In this document: positions 1,863-33,501 of the stretch, in pieces
Position numbering within the stretch: the first letter of the stretch is position 1
Layout of the letters: each line of letters starts with the position of its first letter
Source of the DNA: a virus
Virus record (IMG/VR): IMGVR_UViG_3300010400_000020
Location: 1 to 37,490 of that record
Length of the DNA: 37,490 nucleotides
Direction: 5' to 3' (one strand)
Translations under genes and position numbers: made by a program
Notes under the pieces: model-generated
Told to the model about the DNA's origin: nothing
Databases searched by the model: none
The model's input: only the letters and a program-made list of their open reading frames with translations

Positions 1863-3167
1863 CTAAAATCTCCTTGTGGGTTCGAACCTATTCCGCTGAA
1901 AATCCTGTGACATTTGCTGCTGCTTATAAGGATCATATTTAGCAATTTTATGGGTATAAACACAATATCTTGCTGCATCTATGCAGTGATCGTCCCTCTT
2001 TAATGGCCTATCCTCTCCTTTTTCGCTCGCTTTTGGATCCCAGGAATAAGATTCTAATTCTTTAATCATAGTGGGACAGTCTTCGCATATGAAGATATTG
2101 CCTTTTCGCATCTCAGATGTAAAAAAGGTTATGCCACTAAGTACATCATTATCCGCATCAATGACGTGTATTCCACGTCTTTGTAGCTCAACTTTGAAGG
2201 ATGCAGCACTAGGATCGACATAAACTCCCTTTAAACCATAAGGCTCTAAGAACTCCTGTACGTCATCAGCATATTCGCTATTGGTTTTTTGCCTGCCTTT
2301 CTCCTTTGAATTCCAAACATATTCTTTTTCAAACCATCTACATACACCTGTTTGCGTTGTTATCCCTGTATTCACTCCCATTAGAACACACGCAAAGTTA
2401 TTGGATGTGCCGTAATCGATGCCAGCTACCCAGTACTCAGCAGCACGGGGAGGCCTTTTCACTACATAAATTTTTCTATCAAAAAAATCAAATATGGCTC
2501 CCTCAGCGAGGCACCATAAGCCCAAATAATTCCTTTTGTAGAACAGTCCTGATAAACTGTCTCTAATACGTTGCTTGTAGCTATTATCAACGTAAGGATT
2601 GTCGTCCAAAGAAAAATGAAGCGCATAATAATTTTTATCTCCTTCTTCAGCTTTATCTATCCATTTTTTTATTTTATGTCCAGGATGACTAGGGTTCATA
2701 GAAGCAAATCCCATAGAGTGAGGATTGCTTAAACGAGTGTCTATCATATCTATTATTGATTCTGGATACAAAGTCATTTCATCGCAATAGACTAAGGACA
2801 TAGTTTTTCCTTGAAACTGACCAATGGCCCCCTCGTCCTTTGCTCCTAATGTCTGTATAGTTTTATCTCGGAATTTGAGTTGCCTCTTTCCAGAAAACCA
2901 TGAACAAAACGGCCTGAATATGGCCAGTTGTTCGCTCTCAAGTAGTAGTCTAACTGCGTTTTGGTATATGGTGTCTGAGCTATGGCCGACCATGAATATT
3001 TGGCTATCAGGACAAGAATTTACGGCTTCCATAAATCGAAAGAGCGTTCCAACTGTTTTCCCGCTTCTAACGCTCCCATGGGCTAAATTCCAGTGTCTTG
3101 TTGAATGAACAATAAATTCTATTTGCTTATTTGATAATGGTTTCTGCATATCTTGCAATATATACAA
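1863..3167 (-). CDS. terL: Terminase large subunit (PBSX/Terminase_3-type)
   Basis: 434-aa ORF with Walker A GSVRSGKT and Walker B-like LVYCDE. Nuclease-domain motifs AGIDYG and DHCIDAARY are typical of large terminases. The track start at 3167 is TTG; the first ATG is at 3149. Confidence 0.9.
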   Translation of the reverse strand: MYILQDMQKPLSNKQIEFIVHSTRHWNLAHGSVRSGKTVGTLFRFMEAVNSCPDSQIFMVGHSSDTIYQNAVRLLLESEQLAIFRPFCSWFSGKRQLKFRDKTIQTLGAKDEGAIGQFQGKTMSLVYCDEMTLYPESIIDMIDTRLSNPHSMGFASMNPSHPGHKIKKWIDKAEEGDKNYYALHFSLDDNPYVDNSYKQRIRDSLSGLFYKRNYLGLWCLAEGAIFDFFDRKIYVVKRPPRAAEYWVAGIDYGTSNNFACVLMGVNTGITTQTGVCRWFEKEYVWNSKEKGRQKTNSEYADDVQEFLEPYGLKGVYVDPSAASFKVELQRRGIHVIDADNDVLSGITFFTSEMRKGNIFICEDCPTMIKELESYSWDPKASEKGEDRPLKRDDHCIDAARYCVYTHKIAKYDPYKQQQMSQDFQRNRFEPTRRF

Positions 3168-3203: not shown

Positions 3204-3443
3204 ATGCGTAGAAATCTTACATTTAAAGAAAGAATATTTATTTTAAAACTAGTTGAAAATGGAATGGCTGCTCTAGAAATAGCGGAATATTTCGGTGTCA
3301 ATCCTGCAACTATATTCCGATTCCTAAAAAATGAAGGCTTGAAAGTCAGTAAAAAAACCAATAGACAGATCATTGAAGAATACAAAGAAATGAAAAAACA
3401 AGAACTTAGAAAAATAGTCGAGGAATATGAAAAACAGAGCTAA
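3204..3443 (+). CDS. Small helix-turn-helix DNA-binding protein (resolvase/IS30-type HTH)
   Basis: 79-aa ORF with a purine-rich stretch upstream. HTH-like segment LVENGMAALEIAEYFGVNPATIFRFLK. Lies on the opposite strand to the flanking terS and terL. Confidence 0.6.
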   Translation: MRRNLTFKERIFILKLVENGMAALEIAEYFGVNPATIFRFLKNEGLKVSKKTNRQIIEEYKEMKKQELRKIVEEYEKQS

Positions 3444-3795
3444 ATGTAAATTATGCAAAAGTATTATCGAAAGCTTCCACGATACAGATTATGTTAGATG
3501 CTCTTGTGGGGAGATCTACGTAGATGGGGGCAATGCTTTCAGATGTGGGGCGACGGACTGGGATAATTTTCTAAGAGTCGATGAAAAGGGAAATGAAATC
3601 GCCATAAAAGTTGAGAAAAATATCAGCTCAAAACCAACCAAACATGATTTATTGAAAATGCTTGATGAAATGATAACTTCCTATGAAGGACTACCTCCTC
3701 AAGCTATGATAAACCCAATAACACACTACGACTTTTTGTCTGCTTTGTTATTGCTTTCATCTATACTCAAAGGCTCTCTCAAAGAGGATAACTGA
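3427..3795 (+). CDS. Zinc-ribbon protein of unknown function
   Basis: 122-aa ORF with GAGGA SD upstream; overlaps the previous ORF by 17 nt. N-terminus has CKLC...CSCG...C cysteine pairs. The last 70 nt overlap the 3' end of terS convergently. Confidence 0.55.
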   Translation: MKNRAKCKLCKSIIESFHDTDYVRCSCGEIYVDGGNAFRCGATDWDNFLRVDEKGNEIAIKVEKNISSKPTKHDLLKMLDEMITSYEGLPPQAMINPITHYDFLSALLLLSSILKGSLKEDN

Positions 3796-4181
3796 TTCAT
3801 TACAGCTTCATAATTTTCGAGCGTTTTTTCAGCTATAGCAGTATCGACTGGTGATTCGGACTGTTTTAATCTATTTTTCCCAAGCCAAATTAAAAGAGTA
3901 TTATCTCCTTTATCAGTTAAACCAAGTGCTTTAGCATATTGGTGTGCTCGTATTAAAGCCTCACCTTTTGATCTTTTTTCTTGAGAAAACTCAGAATACT
4001 TTATTCCAAGATCAGTTTCGCATCTAGCATATAATGTTCTATCACTACATCCAAAATAACCAGCTATTTCAGGAGCGGAACAACCTGCTATTAAAAGTTC
4101 CTCGATTTTTTTCCAATCTATATTTGCTTTAGGTCTTCCACCTAGATCTACAGTTTCTTCTGTGGTTGTATTTTCTTCCAT
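3726..4181 (-). CDS. terS: Terminase small subunit
   Basis: Track ORF is 3726..4217; the likely start is ATG 4181 (MEENTTTEETVDLGGRPKANIDWKKIEELLIAGCSAPEIAGYFGCSDRTLY). GRP followed by an HTH is the usual small-terminase N-terminus. Same strand as terL. Confidence 0.7.
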   Translation of the reverse strand: MEENTTTEETVDLGGRPKANIDWKKIEELLIAGCSAPEIAGYFGCSDRTLYARCETDLGIKYSEFSQEKRSKGEALIRAHQYAKALGLTDKGDNTLLIWLGKNRLKQSESPVDTAIAEKTLENYEAVMNQLSSLREPLSIDESNNKADKKS

Positions 4182-4349
4182 GATTGACAATATACACATA
4201 GACTTTTTTTGACACAAATATAAGTCAAAATTTACATGACATGAATTTGTTACGACTTTTTCTTTCTATATAATCTTAGGTGGCCAAACTTCTTTTTTCA
4301 CTTCACATTCCGAACACATTTTAATCCTATTAAGAGTAAAAACTTCTTT

Positions 4350-5173: not shown

Positions 5174-5833
5174 TTATGATAATAAACTACATACTTTAGG
5201 TGTATAAATGTAGTCATATAGACATGTCATTTCAGTAATGGATTTCATATCTTTCGTTTTTAATTCTGAAACTCCAAGACCCTCAGAAGCTGCGTTGCCG
5301 AATGCTTTTCTATATCCTATCGTACAAGGAACGCACTCTAAGTCTTCAAATTCTTTTAGCACTTCCATTGTTGACTGATTATCTTCTCCTCTGGAATCTG
5401 CTTGGTTTATTACAGCTATGCATCTCAGATCAGAATTTACACTCTTTATTTCGGCTATCATATTTCTGAGAGGTCCAACAGTCCAAATATCAAGAGATCT
5501 AGGCTTGAATGGAATTACGAATATATCGGCTATCGTGAGAGCTGATCGTTGGCTAGTAGTATCCCTTCCACCAACATCTATTATAATATCGTCATAATCT
5601 TTCACCATTTTCTGAATCTGATTATTTACTGCTTTCCCAGAAAGTTCAATGGTTGTGAATTTTGTCTGAGTTTCGGAATCTTCTCTTTGTTGTGCCCAAT
5701 CACAAGAAGACTTCTGCTCGTCTGCATCAACTAGTAAGACTTTCTTACCAGCTGAAGATCTCATTACGGTTAAATTTGTGGCTAACGTTGTTTTCCCGCT
5801 TCCGCCTTTAATTCCCCCAAATACTATAATCAT
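5174..5833 (-). CDS. parA: ParA-family partition ATPase (small, type Ib-like)
   Basis: 219 aa. Deviant Walker A GGIKGGSGKTT, then LLVDADEQ and a Walker B-like IIIDVGG. Confidence 0.9.
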   Translation of the reverse strand: MIIVFGGIKGGSGKTTLATNLTVMRSSAGKKVLLVDADEQKSSCDWAQQREDSETQTKFTTIELSGKAVNNQIQKMVKDYDDIIIDVGGRDTTSQRSALTIADIFVIPFKPRSLDIWTVGPLRNMIAEIKSVNSDLRCIAVINQADSRGEDNQSTMEVLKEFEDLECVPCTIGYRKAFGNAASEGLGVSELKTKDMKSITEMTCLYDYIYTPKVCSLLS

Positions 5834-7303: not shown

Positions 7304-8212
7304 TTATCCTCCCTCTCTTTCGTGAAGAGAAATAACTTTTCTTTGAAACTCTTCTGGATTTAAATTATAAGGCAATTCTTCCTCATACCCATTATGCATA
7401 GTAATTTTGGCGTATCTTTCTAAAATCACAATTCCTGACCAAGAATTGGTTTCAAGAAATTTTTCAAGGAATTCTTTGTTTGCCTCAGACTTTTCATTGG
7501 GAACAACTACGCCTTTGTACAACATTCTGTTGATATAACCACCCAAATTCGTTTTGCACTTTTTCTTAGCATATTCGATTACCTCAAACAAACGATCTAC
7601 GCTGTAGGTTTTTGACCACAAACATAGGATTCTATCCTCACTGTTTATATTTTGATCCTTGAGCCATTCGTAGATTATTTCCTGATCTGGAGTCAACCTC
7701 CAACGCTTAGCCGGAGAAACATTATCTTTTTGCTTACCCTCTGTCGATAAGGGCAATATCTTTTTCAATGGTCGTATATTGTCCTTATCAATATCTGAGT
7801 AAGATAATGTGTTAGATAATGTAAGATTGGCCCGTTTGGGCCGCTCGATTGGCCCGTTTGGTCCGACGTAAGAATTTTTTGAAAACCCAAATTCTTCTTC
7901 ATTTGCGAAAGCATAAAAATTCTTCTTGTTCCATGAATGAGCCCCTTCTGTCCTTTTTATTAATATTCCTTTTTTTACTAGATTATCTAGCCTAGTTCGG
8001 ACTTCTTTTTCACTCCAAAATGCAAATTGCATGGCAAGCTCTCTTCGACTGCAGTAATTCCATGTACGGTCTTGATAGCAATTTCTATTCATTCGCTTGT
8101 GTTGTGAAATCATGTTCAATAGAAATTGGATAATAATTGATTCATCCAATCCATACTTCACAGCTAGAGAGAAATTTACGACGAGGGTTTCTAAAGATGA
8201 AGATTGATCCAT
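7304..8212 (-). CDS. Replication initiator / replisome organiser (N-terminal winged-helix, C-terminal DnaD/DnaB_2-like motif)
   Basis: 302 aa with GGGAGA SD upstream. The N-terminus (RRELAMQFAFWSEKEVRTRLDNLVKKGILIKR) looks like a wHTH. C-terminal NLGGYINRMLYKG resembles the YIxxIL motif of DnaD-like domains. Contains internal GC-rich direct repeats. Confidence 0.5.
   Translation of the reverse strand: MDQSSSLETLVVNFSLAVKYGLDESIIIQFLLNMISQHKRMNRNCYQDRTWNYCSRRELAMQFAFWSEKEVRTRLDNLVKKGILIKRTEGAHSWNKKNFYAFANEEEFGFSKNSYVGPNGPIERPKRANLTLSNTLSYSDIDKDNIRPLKKILPLSTEGKQKDNVSPAKRWRLTPDQEIIYEWLKDQNINSEDRILCLWSKTYSVDRLFEVIEYAKKKCKTNLGGYINRMLYKGVVVPNEKSEANKEFLEKFLETNSWSGIVILERYAKITMHNGYEEELPYNLNPEEFQRKVISLHEREGG
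7826..7865. repeat. Two 18-bp direct repeats (ATTGGCCCGTTTGG[G/T]CCG), 22 bp apart, inside rep; candidate ori iterons
   Basis: Read directly at 7826..7843 and 7848..7865 (17/18 identical). Strongly GC-rich relative to the surroundings. They encode the linker GPNGPIERPKRAN. Confidence 0.45.
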
Positions 8213-9492: not shown

Positions 9493-10314
9493 ATGACAGT
9501 AGTATTAAGAGAAGAACAAAATTTCGATCTGATTTTGCAGGATGTAGAGACCATGCAAAAGATGTGTTCTACACTGATGAAAACAAAACACTATCAAAGA
9601 ATGGGTGAAGAAGGAGTTTTTGCAGTTATTCAGAAAGCAAAATCTATAGGAATGCACCCATTAGAAGCTTTAAATGGCGGCTTATATATCGTAAGCGGCA
9701 AAGTTGGAATGTCTGCGGAGAGTATGGCTGCTTTAATTAGAATGAAAGGCCATAGCGTTGTGCAGGATGAACGATCGAATGATAAAGTTTGCATCCTCAA
9801 AGGAAAAAGAGCCGACAATGGTGATACATGGAGGGTTTCATTCGGGATAGAAGATGCTAGACGAGCAGGTCTTTTGAAGAATCCGTCTTATGAAAAGTAT
9901 CCTTCGATCATGTTGTACAATAGGGCTATGTCAATTTTAGCCCGTCAATTGTTTCCAGACGTCATCAAAGGAGCTGGTTATACCATGGACGAGCTCAAAG
10001 AGATCTCTGAAAGCAAGCAAATTCCCTTAAAACAAGAAGTTGTTAAGCCTGAATCTATGGAATATGCCCAATTTGAAGAAGTTGATGCAAAGATATCAGA
10101 AGAACAGTATTTGACGCTTCGTGATTATTTTGATGGTTGTAGCTCTGAAAACCAGGAGAAGTTCAACGAATGGATGTTGAAGACTCTAAATATAACCTCA
10201 GTAGCTTTATTGAATTCTAAAGACTACGAAAGGGTTGAGAGAATCTTGAAAACTAAATCTGAGGAAAACCAAAAGTCTTCCCCAGTTCAGGAGTTACAAC
10301 ATGCAACAGCCTAA
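9493..10314 (+). CDS. recT: RecT-family single-strand annealing recombinase
   Basis: 273 aa. Segment MSAESMAALIRMKGH...WRVSFGIEDARRAGLL...YPSIMLYNRAMSILARQLFPDVIKG matches the RecT core as I recall it. Followed by the YqaJ exonuclease partner. Confidence 0.75.
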   Translation: MTVVLREEQNFDLILQDVETMQKMCSTLMKTKHYQRMGEEGVFAVIQKAKSIGMHPLEALNGGLYIVSGKVGMSAESMAALIRMKGHSVVQDERSNDKVCILKGKRADNGDTWRVSFGIEDARRAGLLKNPSYEKYPSIMLYNRAMSILARQLFPDVIKGAGYTMDELKEISESKQIPLKQEVVKPESMEYAQFEEVDAKISEEQYLTLRDYFDGCSSENQEKFNEWMLKTLNITSVALLNSKDYERVERILKTKSEENQKSSPVQELQHATA

Positions 10315-11152
10315 CTTAAGACAAAGAAGTCCTGAGTGGCACGAGTTTAGACAAAAACATATAGGTGGTAGCGATGCTATCACCTGTATGGGTGATTATA
10401 GATATGCCACTCCCTATCAACTTTATCTAGAGAAATTGGGGCTATCTTCACCTAGGAGGATAACTTCTGCTATGCAGAATGGTATCGATAACGAAGAGCC
10501 TGCTAGACGAGCATTTGAGAATCTCATGGGAATCTCTGTCTTTCCAGTTGTCCGGAAATCCCGGACAGTTGACTTTATGATGTCTAGTCTAGATGGTTTA
10601 GATATGGATGAAAAGATAGCTGTGGAGATAAAGTGCCCTTCAGATATGACCTATCATCAAATGGCTCTGGATGGAAAAGTCCCTGATCATCATATGCCTC
10701 AATTACAGCATCAAATTTCTGTTTTAGGTCTTGATGGTATTTACTTTTTTAGTTATACTGCTACGTCAAGCGCCGTTGTAGAAGTTAAAAGAGACGAAAA
10801 CTACATCAGGAATTTGATTGAGAAAGAGAGGATTTTTTGGGAGTACGTTACCAAAGAAGAAGCTCCCCCACTCACAGATAAAGACTATGTTTATTGTGAA
10901 TCAAATGAGTGGAAGGAATTGACTGAAGAATGGAAGAGGCTTAGCGATCTGGAAGAAAGAAAGGAGATTGTTAGGAAACAACTCATTGCCATTGCGGGAG
11001 ATAAAAATGCGAAAGGGAATGGGTGTACTTTAACTAAAGTATATAGAAAAGGAAATATTCCCTATTCCAAGATCCCAGAAGTGAAAAAATTAGATTTGGA
11101 AGCGCATAGAGGACCTCCTATTGAAAGCTGGAGGTTATCTATAAATGCTTAA
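10301..11152 (+). CDS. YqaJ/lambda-exonuclease-like PD-(D/E)XK recombination exonuclease
   Basis: 283 aa. RSPEWHEFRQKHIGGSDA N-terminus and LDGLDMDEKIAVEIKCP (D...E-x-K). Overlaps recT by 14 nt. Confidence 0.8.
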   Translation: MQQPNLRQRSPEWHEFRQKHIGGSDAITCMGDYRYATPYQLYLEKLGLSSPRRITSAMQNGIDNEEPARRAFENLMGISVFPVVRKSRTVDFMMSSLDGLDMDEKIAVEIKCPSDMTYHQMALDGKVPDHHMPQLQHQISVLGLDGIYFFSYTATSSAVVEVKRDENYIRNLIEKERIFWEYVTKEEAPPLTDKDYVYCESNEWKELTEEWKRLSDLEERKEIVRKQLIAIAGDKNAKGNGCTLTKVYRKGNIPYSKIPEVKKLDLEAHRGPPIESWRLSINA

Positions 11153-32145: not shown

Positions 32146-32583
32146 TTACACCCCCAAATTGCTTAAGCGTGTTGACATTAAATTTCTTATAGCTGTGTCT
32201 TGCGTTAAAGCTTGTGCTTGGGCAAATTTAACTGCCAAAGTAGCGTTTTGTGCAAGCATACCAGAATAATAAGGGTCACGATAAATCAGGTTCATGCTAT
32301 AGCCGTCCTGATTGATATGCGTAACTGCCTGTTTGCCTACAACAGTGTTGTAGTACAAATCATTTAATGTACCCGAGCTATTTGCTACAGCGTTTCTAGC
32401 GACTGGAGCTTCTGAACTAGTCAGAACTCTAATGTTAAATGCAGAACCATATTCAGATGGCAAAGCACTAGCATTAGTTGGATAATTCCATTGGTTTAGG
32501 AATCCACTACCTACGAGTGTATCGAAATCAGATTGTAACTCTGTTGAAGATAGCATAAAATATGCTGATCTTACAGGGCCTGT
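32146..32583 (-). CDS. Major capsid protein, exon 2 (aa 182-326 of the spliced product)
   Basis: Track ORF 32146..32586 (MTGPVRSAYFMLSS...); the listed M is the intron's last three bases. TGPVRSAYF... continues the HK97-fold/N4-gp56-like MCP begun in exon 1. Confidence 0.8.
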   Translation of the reverse strand, partial: TGPVRSAYFMLSSTELQSDFDTLVGSGFLNQWNYPTNASALPSEYGSAFNIRVLTSSEAPVARNAVANSSGTLNDLYYNTVVGKQAVTHINQDGYSMNLIYRDPYYSGMLAQNATLAVKFAQAQALTQDTAIRNLMSTRLSNLGV

Positions 32584-32958
32584 CATTCTGTTACTTATTA
32601 ACCAACAAAGTTGGCGGCCATCTCATTTCTGGATGACTCTCTACCTTTATTTATTCGTAGAGTTCGGACTATCGCATACGTTATCACTAACGTCTTCTGG
32701 ATTTAGTCTCTCACGGTAGCTTACGCCTTCCGCCTTGTTAACCTTCTGCATTAGATATTTCAAAAAATTCATGATGCACACCTTTAACATTAGACTGACA
32801 TTTTACACATGTCCAATCGCCTGTTATGCAACTTACTTCTTCTTCTTTTTTTAAGTGTTTGCAGGTTTCGCATCTCCAAATTCTTTCAAGAACAATCTGT
32901 GTCATGCAGCAAGGCACTCCAAGTCAATTACCAAAAGTTTTAATTCGGCACACACTTT
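32584..32958 (-). ncRNA. Group I self-splicing intron (375 nt) in the major capsid gene
   Basis: - P1: exon end UUCGGU pairs with guide GCCGAA, giving a U-G wobble at the splice site.
- P2 AAUUA/UAAUU; P3 UUGGA/UCCAG.
- The GCCUUG/CAAGGC helix encloses the ORF loop.
- A stem is capped by a GUAA tetraloop.
- P7 GACUA/UAGUC lies within R-like GAGAGACUAAA and S-like GAUAGUCC elements.
- P8 ACGUUA/UAACGU; P9 CUCUAC/GUAGAG.
- A terminal G precedes ACA GGC, and excision restores the reading frame. Confidence 0.8.
32738..32905 (-). CDS. Intron-encoded 55-aa zinc-ribbon protein
   Basis: MTQIVLERIWRCETCKHLKKEEEVSCITGDWTCVKCQSNVKGVHHEFFEISNAEG (CxxC...CxxC). Its ATG overlaps the TGA that ends the exon-1 read-through frame (ATGA). 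It lies wholly inside the loop closed by GCCUUG/CAAGGC. Confidence 0.5.
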   Translation of the reverse strand: MTQIVLERIWRCETCKHLKKEEEVSCITGDWTCVKCQSNVKGVHHEFFEISNAEG

Positions 32959-33501
32959 ACCGAATCGATCCATACCTTCAATACCTGACATGAATTTGTA
33001 GGCATTGTTGGTATCCAAAGTAGTTGCAACTAGGCTAAAATCGCTCATCCCAAGGTTAGTTGGGTTGAAACCATTTGAGCCACCTGCAGCGTTAATTTGG
33101 CTAGCTGCTGAGACAATGTAGTCTCTTAAGATCAAGTCTTCTGCTTGTCTCATAGCAACTGCAAGTCTTTCAGAAACCCAGGCTAAAACGCCTTCTTGGT
33201 CTTGAAGAATAACTTGTTCGTTGATGATACATCCTGTACCGAAGAATGCCATTTGGGCATCAATAATATCTCTTTGTGGAACTTGAGCTGGGGGATCTAT
33301 CCCTGAGTTACCAAGTTGCACAGTAGGAGGAGTAAGCGCTCTTGGACGCATAAACCTCATTGTTGTTCCACCATTAGGAGGCATTGAAACCTTATCACAA
33401 ATGGTGATGTAGTTCATTGTAGGCGTAGGAACATATAACATCGCAGGCGCAAGCGACTGCAAGATCATAGGACCTAAATTGCCAGTAGTTGTAATAGACA
33501 T
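32959..33501 (-). CDS. Major capsid protein, exon 1 (aa 1-181)
   Basis: Track ORF 32902..33501. MSITTTGNLGPM...MRFMRPRALTPP...IIDAQMAFFGTGCIINEQV...GMDRFG matches the N-terminal half of HK97-fold MCPs of the N4 gp56-like family as I recall them. The last 18 listed codons (KVCAELKLLVIDLECLAA) are intron read-through. Confidence 0.8.

Follow-up and report, generated by a model that had tools for sequence, protein, structure and literature searches.

A group I self-splicing intron predicted in the major capsid protein gene of an uncultured tailed phage

The viral contig IMGVR_UViG_3300010400_000020 (37,490 nt, all of it analyzed here and referred to as the window) carries a major capsid protein (MCP) gene that is broken by an insert of exactly 375 nt, at 32958..32584 on the minus strand. 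This insert is, with high confidence, a group I self-splicing intron in an N4-gp56-family MCP gene, carried by a tailed, uncultured phage of about 37.5 kb. Such an intron had been proposed from the letters of the window alone (hereafter the sequence-only reading), and the interpretation is now supported by the covariation of the fold across a whole family of related introns and by the reading frame restored at the junction. Group I introns in phage genes, capsid genes included, are already known, and the window intron adds to them a family that is missed by Rfam. The gene is organized as follows:

32959..33501, minus strand: MCP exon 1, codons 1-181 (list of open reading frames (ORFs); TIGR04387 and PHROG 1357 matches that cross the junction; alignment to continuous homologues)
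32584..32958, minus strand: predicted group I intron (exact insertion compared with 15 empty-site alleles; family covariation; family model R1)
32146..32583, minus strand: MCP exon 2, codons 182-326 and stop, starting TGPVRS (ORF list; homologue alignment; TIGR04387)

The insert lies in phase 0 between Gly181 and Thr182. Exon 1 ends in ...GAU CGA UUC GGU (protein ...GMDRFG), the 3' end of the insert reads ...ACAGAAUG, and exon 2 begins with ACA GGC at 32583 and reaches its stop at 32146. In the unspliced sequence, the minus-strand ORF that starts at 33501 (MSITTT...GIEGMDRFG) continues for 18 codons into the intron (KVCAELKLLVIDLECLAA) before stopping at 32902, the second ORF (32586..32146) reads M-TGPVRSAYFML..., and gene callers annotate the region as three separate genes of 199, 55 and 146 aa. 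Deletion of 32958..32584 joins GGU (Gly181) to ACA (Thr182), and the 181 + 145 codons then encode 326 aa; the coordinates and the in-frame join given by the sequence-only reading are exact. The expected ligated junction is ...GAUUCGGU joined to ACAGGCCC..., also written as ...GGUAUGGAUCGAUUCGGU followed by ACAGGCCCUGUAAGA..., and its junction peptide is MDRFGTGPVR.

The claim that the two ORFs are halves of a single N4 gp56-like capsid protein holds at both the protein and the DNA level. When searched against capsid families, the spliced 326-aa protein gives two matches that span the junction: NCBIfam TIGR04387 (N4-gp56 family major capsid protein; 76.3 bits for a cut-off of 60, residues 20-307) and PHROG 1357 (major head protein; residues 19-310, E = 2e-13). 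Pfam Phage_capsid_4 scores 21.4 bits on the same protein, under its cut-off of 27. A search of 5.8 billion protein clusters returns 1025 matches to the spliced protein, and the best 120 of these are 315-342 aa long, with 86-92% identity and 97-100% query coverage. Fourteen aligned sequences run without a gap from GMDRFG into TGPVRS, and Gly181 and Pro184 are invariant among them. The empty site is also seen in the DNA of 15 related loci that are uninterrupted across the junction, one of which (L073; numbers of this kind designate the loci compared) is identical to the window exons over GGTATTGAAGGTATGGATCGATTCGGT followed directly by ACAGG. Because of the profile matches, the gapless homologues and the empty-site loci, the capsid gene can be considered as normally continuous and the window insertion as exact. 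A profile search of the PDB with the capsid protein found no sequence-level match, and the AlphaFold2 model of the spliced protein, made from a shallow alignment (A1), has a mean pLDDT of 30 and is unusable; an HK97-like fold is presumed solely from membership of the family.

The elements of the predicted intron, listed from the 5' splice site onward and all on the minus strand, are these:

32964-32959 / 32949-32944 (span 32944..32964), minus strand: P1 hairpin UUCGGU/GCCGAA (sequence; family P1 statistics)
32958-32950, minus strand: L1 AAAGUGUGU, the P1 loop
32943-32938, minus strand: J1/3 UUAAAA, preceding the P3 5' strand
32937-32931 / 32700-32694, minus strand: P3 CUUUUGG/CCAGAAG (RNAalifold; pair counts; whole-helix swaps among same-site introns)
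32930-32924, minus strand: J3/4 UAAUUGA
32923-32920 / 32737-32734, minus strand: P4 CUUG/CAAG (invariant or one-sided variation; 100% paired in 35 sequences)
32915-32911 / 32745-32741, minus strand: P5 GCCUU/AAGGU (covariation)
32910-32906 / 32749-32746, minus strand: P5a GCUGC/GCAG, closing the ORF-bearing loop (sibling intron L147 has the same P5a)
32738..32905, minus strand: 55-aa ORF in the P5a loop (MTQIVLERIWRCETCKH...CVKCQ...NAEG, stop) with a CxxC...CxxC pattern (ORF list)
32713..32733, minus strand: P6 GCGG-AA-GGC / GUAA tetraloop / GCU-A-CCGU (4/6 pairs with compensatory changes; in single-sequence fold)
32704..32710, minus strand: P7 5' strand, with G32710, bulged A32709 and GACUA 32708-32704 (family comparison)
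32703-32701, minus strand: J7/3 AAU
32678..32693, minus strand: P8 hairpin ACGUUA-GUGA-UAACGU (formed in essentially all copies; all four counted pairs covary)
32677-32672, minus strand: J8/7 AUGCGA
32666..32671, minus strand: P7 3' strand UAGUCC (family comparison)
32639..32662, minus strand: P9 hairpin CUCUAC-GAAUAAAUAAAG-GUAGAG (5-8 bp stem here in all copies; RNAalifold covariation)
32637-32617, minus strand: P9.1 GUCAUC-CAGAAAUGA-GAUGGC (single-sequence fold)
32615-32601, minus strand: P9.2 GCCAAC-UUU-GUUGGU (single-sequence fold)
32584..32600, minus strand: 3' tail UAAUAAGUAACAGAAUG with terminal G 32584 (family end GUAACA-N-UG directly before exon 2)
32583-32581 / 32952-32950, minus strand: candidate P10, exon-2 ACA with UGU directly 5' of the guide (family P10 abuts P1)

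The P1 wobble U32959-G32949 marks the 5' splice site. P2 is absent, J1/3 leading straight to P3, and so are P7.1/P7.2; the periphery is made of P9.1 and P9.2, which recur in sibling introns with other stems and a conserved CAGAAAUGA loop. Taken by itself, the insert folds only modestly better than its shuffles (z = -2.8), and the case for the structure comes from the family.

Exact-match scans of viral contigs with the P7/P3' string GAGAGACTAAATCCAG and with the 5' motif TTTGGTAATYGACTTGGA returned 11 and 75 loci, respectively. De-duplication left 64 copies, and after removal of a chance match (L027), 63 were used. The whole family comprises over 100 homologous introns in viral and metagenomic contigs, with a common layout. 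The 5' part runs exon, L1, guide, J1/3 (WUWAAA), P3, UAAUYGA and P4; the 3' part runs GA-N-N-GACUA-AAY-P3', P8, AUGCGA, UAGUC-N, P9, P9.1, P9.2 and GUAACA-N-UG, directly followed by the exon. The guide stands at a fixed distance upstream of P3 and forms a perfect 6-bp P1 in 61/63 copies, with the final exon base U always opposite G. The guides come in 29 different sequences, each of which fits its own exon, and shuffled upstream sequence would yield only 1.8 such copies. The 3' end GUAACA-N-UG is conserved as well, and a P10 of 2-7 bp abuts P1.

The core helices covary. RNAalifold predicts P3, P4, P5, P6, P8 and P9 from 22 compact copies. In a larger alignment (A3, 35 sequences), 30 pairs were counted, the P7 pseudoknot included: 99.5% of the core cells are paired, and compensatory changes on both sides are found at 15 of the 30 pairs (115 cells), with P3, P5, P6, P7 and P8 all covarying. 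The covariation score is 0.347, which none of 500 shuffles reaches (0.108 ± 0.008), and sliding the 3' partners by 1-3 columns leaves 36-45% of the cells paired. The P7 pair flanking the bulge, whose complementarity was not imposed by the counting script, is Watson-Crick in 63/63 copies (G-C in 33, A-U in 22, U-A in 6 and C-G in 2). The bulge is A or C in all 63, and the adjoining G-C pair, predicted to be the guanosine-binding site, is invariant. Compensated P7 variants also exist, GAUCA/UGAUC in L040 (a double swap) and GAACA/UGUUC in L066, and introns that share a capsid site differ by exchange of the entire P3 helix (CCUUGGG/CCUGAGG, UCUUCUC/GAGAAGA and UCUCUUC/GAAGAGA). P8 keeps its place with 46 different sequences, and P9 with 55. 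Insertions in L6, P8 and P9 are common, and compact ORF-less siblings of 200-240 nt retain the same core. The window copy agrees with the family at every invariant column. A covariance model built from the family (R1) and run unfiltered over the whole window detects the intron locus only, in a match split in two by the loop insertion (3' core, 67 bits with E = 6e-15; 5' part, 21 bits). There is no second family copy elsewhere in the window, the next best R1 score being 12.7 bits (E = 0.23).

These comparisons also revise the secondary structure first drawn for the intron. The sequence-only reading had listed a full set of group I hallmarks in the correct order, and every RNA string that it named is present in the sequence, but only part of the set stands. 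P1 with its U-G at the splice site, the stem capped by GUAA (which is P6), P7 as GACUA/UAGUC, P8, P9 and the terminal G before ACA GGC are all upheld by the family, through the statistics, compensated variants and conserved 3' end given above. Three helices have to be given up. The supposed P2 (AAUUA/UAAUU) has its 5' half in variable sequence and does not covary. P3 is not UUGGA/UCCAG but CUUUUGG/CCAGAAG, UUGGA really belonging to a P4 strand. The GCCUUG/CAAGGC helix thought to close the ORF-bearing loop dissolves into two, CAAG pairing with CUUG (P4) and GCCUU with AAGGU (P5), while the loop itself is closed by P5a.

Nearly all of the loci that bear the motifs are homologous capsid genes, with 26-96% identity, and their break points lie for instance near residues 69/70, 88/89, 104/105, 117/118, 163/164, 180-182, 215/216 and 278-285. 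R1 gives 132 matches in 60 loci, with at least three strong copies in single capsid genes such as those of L063, L060, L016 and L049. Since the motif scans found introns wherever the motifs occur, this concentration in capsid genes is an observation about this family. A metagenome scan for the exact site of the window, with the pattern TTYGGT, splice site, AAA-N6-GCCGAAWTAAAA, returned 77 stretches; 67 of them are distinct, and in about 50 of these an intron divides a capsid gene between (R/K)FG and T. In L066 (6386-6723) and L043 (3183-3638), the Phe180 codon is interrupted after its second base by a family intron, 4 nt upstream of the site used in the window, and the guide GACCUGU of this intron matches ACAGGUU; this shows the same core retargeted to adjacent positions. 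Among loci L001-L079, sibling capsid genes have three to four family copies at different codons (L049 750-1730, L063 2949-3815, L060 1505-2489, L016 1962-3374 and L070). One strong copy is outside the capsid gene, at L055 2697-2843.

From this structure a splicing pathway can be proposed. In the pre-mRNA, the last six bases of exon 1, UUCGGU, would pair with the guide GCCGAA to form P1, with the U-G at the cleavage site. The core would fold with P3-P8 pseudoknotted with P7, beside the P4-P5-P6 domain and with no P2. By the standard group I mechanism, an external guanosine would attack after U32959, and the terminal G32584 would then take the place of the guanosine in the binding site. Exon 2 would be held by the short P10 (ACA/UGU) and the exons joined, leaving a continuous mRNA for the 326-aa capsid protein. 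Efficient in vivo splicing by these two guanosine-initiated transesterification steps is expected from what is established for group I introns. Because unspliced RNA would give nothing more than a truncated protein of 199 aa, production of the capsid should depend on splicing, and it is reasonable to infer that virion production does so too.

Several points weigh against this assignment. The splicing of the window intron is deduced from sequence, and P10 has only 3 bp in this copy and is weak on its own. Translation of exon 1 runs 18 codons into the intron, from P3 to P5a, and could disturb folding. Rfam 15, run over the window at gathering thresholds, gives no match, nor does Intron_gpI, the model proposed for checking the intron region; on 32400-33150, no group I match appears at E <= 10, only noise-level snoRNA and miRNA hits, and the compact sibling introns, again up to E <= 10, match neither RF00028 nor any other Rfam family. 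This silence was calibrated on a stretch of the T4 genome (AF158101 135000-150000, L081) that holds the proven nrdB and td introns: RF00028 scores 35.7 bits on nrdB, under its 50-bit gathering threshold, and td is unreported at E <= 1. Since RF00028 also misses td and underscores nrdB, its failure on the window carries little weight, and a negative Rfam result is uninformative for phage introns. By the same control, Rfam-based screens under-count phage group I introns.

The alternative that survives best, although we consider it improbable, is that the insert is a group I intron by descent whose window copy splices poorly or no longer does, in a defective phage with a broken capsid gene. A possible cause would be the 168-nt ORF insertion in P5a. 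That ORF is unique to this contig, so the arrangement has no track record; in addition, the exon-1 read-through enters the core, and splicing is predicted here from the sequence. Against such decay, all of the helices and family-invariant positions are intact, L146 and L132 also bear ORF insertions in the P5a loop, and insertions in L6, P8 and P9 are frequent in the family, as noted. The exons are undamaged and about 90% identical to intact homologues, and a look-up of a neighboring gene returned three contigs carrying that gene.

It is less credible still that the halves are expressed as separate proteins, or that they are joined by way of an intein, a group II intron or translational bypassing. 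The three genes of the gene callers speak for separate proteins, but among the matches listed no homologue is split at this point without a family intron, and the second half begins exactly after the intron's terminal G. The insert is not an intein, because a stop codon 18 codons in leaves no in-frame protein insertion, and a group II intron is a poor fit with 375 nt and a covariation-supported group I core. Finally, chance complementarity in AT-rich DNA, the insert then being an unstructured mobile ORF cassette, could appeal to the modest z-score and to the three helices of the sequence-only reading that were indeed chance, but it is contradicted by the covariation, the P1 statistics, the slid controls, the P3 swaps and the core kept in ORF-less siblings, and hardly deserves further thought.

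The group I intron of the window can be set beside several known systems. The td, nrdB and nrdD introns of T4 belong to group IA2, whose members carry the extra helices P7.1/P7.2 and P2. As in T4, where I-TevIII is annotated as defective, some copies have defective or missing endonucleases. Unlike the T4 introns, the family lacks P2 and P7.1/P7.2, P8 being the one hairpin that separates P3' from P7', and neither td nor nrdB is picked up by R1 (best score 9.9 bits). The segments ...AGACUAAAU... (J6/7-P7-J7/3), ...GAUAGUC... (J8/7-P7') and AAUUG... (J3/4-P4) resemble what we take to be the classical R, S and P elements of the Tetrahymena large subunit (LSU) intron, and the bulged A beside the G-binding G-C pair is presumably a further likeness. 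In contrast to the Tetrahymena intron, there is no P2/P2.1 and no P5abc extension, and the size is far smaller.

Among phage capsid genes, that of lactococcal phage Tuc2009 is cited as having a group I intron (in PMC3706429), and splicing of the capsid-gene intron of mycobacteriophage LittleE was shown by RT-PCR and N-terminal protein sequencing (PMC3706429). The LittleE intron, which its authors call “most likely” group I, is 819 bp long and bears an antisense LAGLIDADG-like ORF (PMC3706429). Like both, the window intron interrupts a tailed phage's major capsid gene, which is highly expressed; it shares with LittleE a U at the end of exon 1 and a G at the end of the intron. Compared by description, it differs from both in its 375 nt, its orphan 55-aa ORF, its unrelated capsid family and the many sites of the gene that are occupied. 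The gut “Jug” jumbo phages have essential genes, terL among them, that are broken by small group I introns averaging about 206 nt; the introns were found through fragmented genes in metagenomic genomes, and around half were confirmed as spliced by metatranscriptome reads (PMC12880540). They were detected by means of published subtype covariance models and number about 18 per genome, in many genes of 360-402 kb genomes (PMC12880540). Both sets are compact, numerous and located in essential genes, but here the capsid gene, in phages of roughly 40 kb, accounts for almost all of the copies found. One gene of Staphylococcus phage Twort, orf142, is cited as having three group I introns (Landthaler and Shub, 1999, in PMC6669764). 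The sibling capsid genes with three to four copies likewise have several introns of the same type in one gene, unlike the window itself, which holds one. The Twort introns probably belong to a different subgroup. In the literature, no report was found of this intron family or of introns in this phage lineage.

The loop ORF of the window is closely fitted to the intron. On the minus strand at 32902-32907, GCAUGA is read, so that the AUG of the ORF overlaps the UGA ending the exon-1 read-through (AUGA), which suggests termination-reinitiation coupling on unspliced RNA; the stop codon of the ORF is the UAA of the ribozyme J5/4. The 55-aa product finds only itself in the 5.8 billion protein clusters, has no relative by local tblastn in the fetched loci, and gives no significant Pfam, PHROG or NCBIfam match. 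The idea of an HNH remnant was dropped for want of the H-N-H spacing and of a Pfam hit. In sibling L147, the same P5a is closed by an 8-nt loop with no ORF, and L146 and L132 have unrelated ORFs at this place, with start and stop positioned as in the window. The 55-aa ORF is thus seen as an insertion into a tolerant loop.

Other family members do encode homing endonucleases, with Pfam PF00961 (LAGLIDADG_1) at or above its cut-off. Many siblings hold LAGLIDADG ORFs of 150-415 aa, some of them antisense (L011 4758-5829, L073 11508-12578, L001 3565-4728, L006, L036, L078, L034, L038 and L079), and L062 has an HNH-like ORF under the Pfam cut-off. In the window intron, no homing endonuclease is recognizable in the 55-aa ORF, and for this reason this copy is probably not autonomously mobile. 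By analogy with other group I introns, its spread may have relied on reverse splicing or on homing from siblings mediated by an endonuclease.

A second kind of ORF runs through the core itself, an arrangement that is already recognized elsewhere (PMC3984707, Figure 2). In siblings, these ORFs of 60-160 aa start in the L6 insertion and stop at the UAA of the conserved L9 loop. J6/7-P7-J7/3-P3' encodes ..QPERLNPED.., the frame continues through the P8 insertion, and J8/7-P7' encodes ..CDSPNS... They are in frame and open in 13 of the 21 copies whose P8 is at least 30 nt, where a rough, uncomputed estimate gives about one by chance. Ten of these loci are at the window's capsid site (L099, L109, L112, L117, L132, L134, L137, L143, L153 and L156), and L022, L069 and L071 are further examples. 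Toward the N-terminus they are diverse, many being rich in Cys, with one type (MKEELI.YVMGKA..YSDDFPIY..WI.EFFDQYQPERLNPE) recurring in L119, L132 and L153. The window has, at 32647-32790 on the minus strand, a 47-aa ORF (MLKVCIMNFLKYLMQKVNKAEGVSYRERLNPEDVSDNVCDSPNSTNK) that passes through P5'-P4'-P6-P7-P3'-P8-P7'-P9 in the frame shared by the siblings' core-spanning ORFs, but as both L6 and P8 lack insertions here, this ORF may simply result from the conservation of the core.

A bolder view, which we put forward tentatively and rate well below an even chance, is that this is an uncatalogued compact group I family specialized on one capsid-gene lineage, in which it occupies dozens of sites and reaches three or four copies in a gene, and whose peripheral loops (P5a, L6 and P8) serve as landing pads for diverse non-endonuclease mini-proteins. 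The 55-aa ORF is zinc-ribbon-like and borrows its stop from J5/4 just as the core-spanning ORFs borrow theirs from L9. Were the mini-proteins expressed and functional, with roles such as phage-phage competition, help in splicing or takeover of the host, the introns would be a new cargo system rather than decayed homing introns.

As a contig (ENA ERZ27256644, k141_5940800; 37,508 bp), the window is phage-like and nearly complete; its genes include terS and terL, RecT- and RecE-like genes, a ParA-like gene, a replication initiation protein gene and tail fibre genes. The terminase genes are placed as follows:

1863-3167, minus strand: terL
3726-4217, minus strand: terS

A split terL was considered and rejected, since the 434-aa ORF has a Walker A motif (GKT) near its N-terminus. 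Between the minus-strand terS and terL, two small plus-strand ORFs at 3204-3795 encode a 79-aa helix-turn-helix protein and a 122-aa protein with an N-terminal DUF7695 zinc-ribbon-like domain, and they look like an inserted cassette. The ParA-like, replication initiation and RecT/RecE-like genes are found at 5174-5833, 7304-8212 and 9493-11152; together they hint at a plasmid-like or temperate lifestyle. INPHARED has no match to the region or the intron by blastn, nor to the spliced capsid protein by tblastn, and hence the phage has no annotated cultured relative there. Genome bins were tried as a guide to the host and set aside, as the bins of relatives are incompatible with each other (Nitrosopumilaceae, Bacteroidota, Chlamydiia, Patescibacteria, Methanobacterium and others); 3 of 13 close capsid relatives in bins are labelled Chlamydiia-related. 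These binned relatives, several of which are on contigs of 30-41 kb, are read as mis-binned phage genomes.

For the phages that carry these introns, the most abundant virion protein would depend on RNA catalysis. Because gene callers split the gene into three unrelated “hypothetical” genes and Rfam is silent, the capsid genes of this widespread uncultured lineage, seen in bog, fen, soil and groundwater metagenomes, will be systematically mis-annotated, and this will distort capsid-based phylogenies or abundance counts. With one ribozyme core retargeted to at least 29 exon sequences, the family offers a natural series for studying how introns move to new sites, and its mini-ORFs, which share sequence with the ribozyme core, raise the question of a coupling between translation and splicing.

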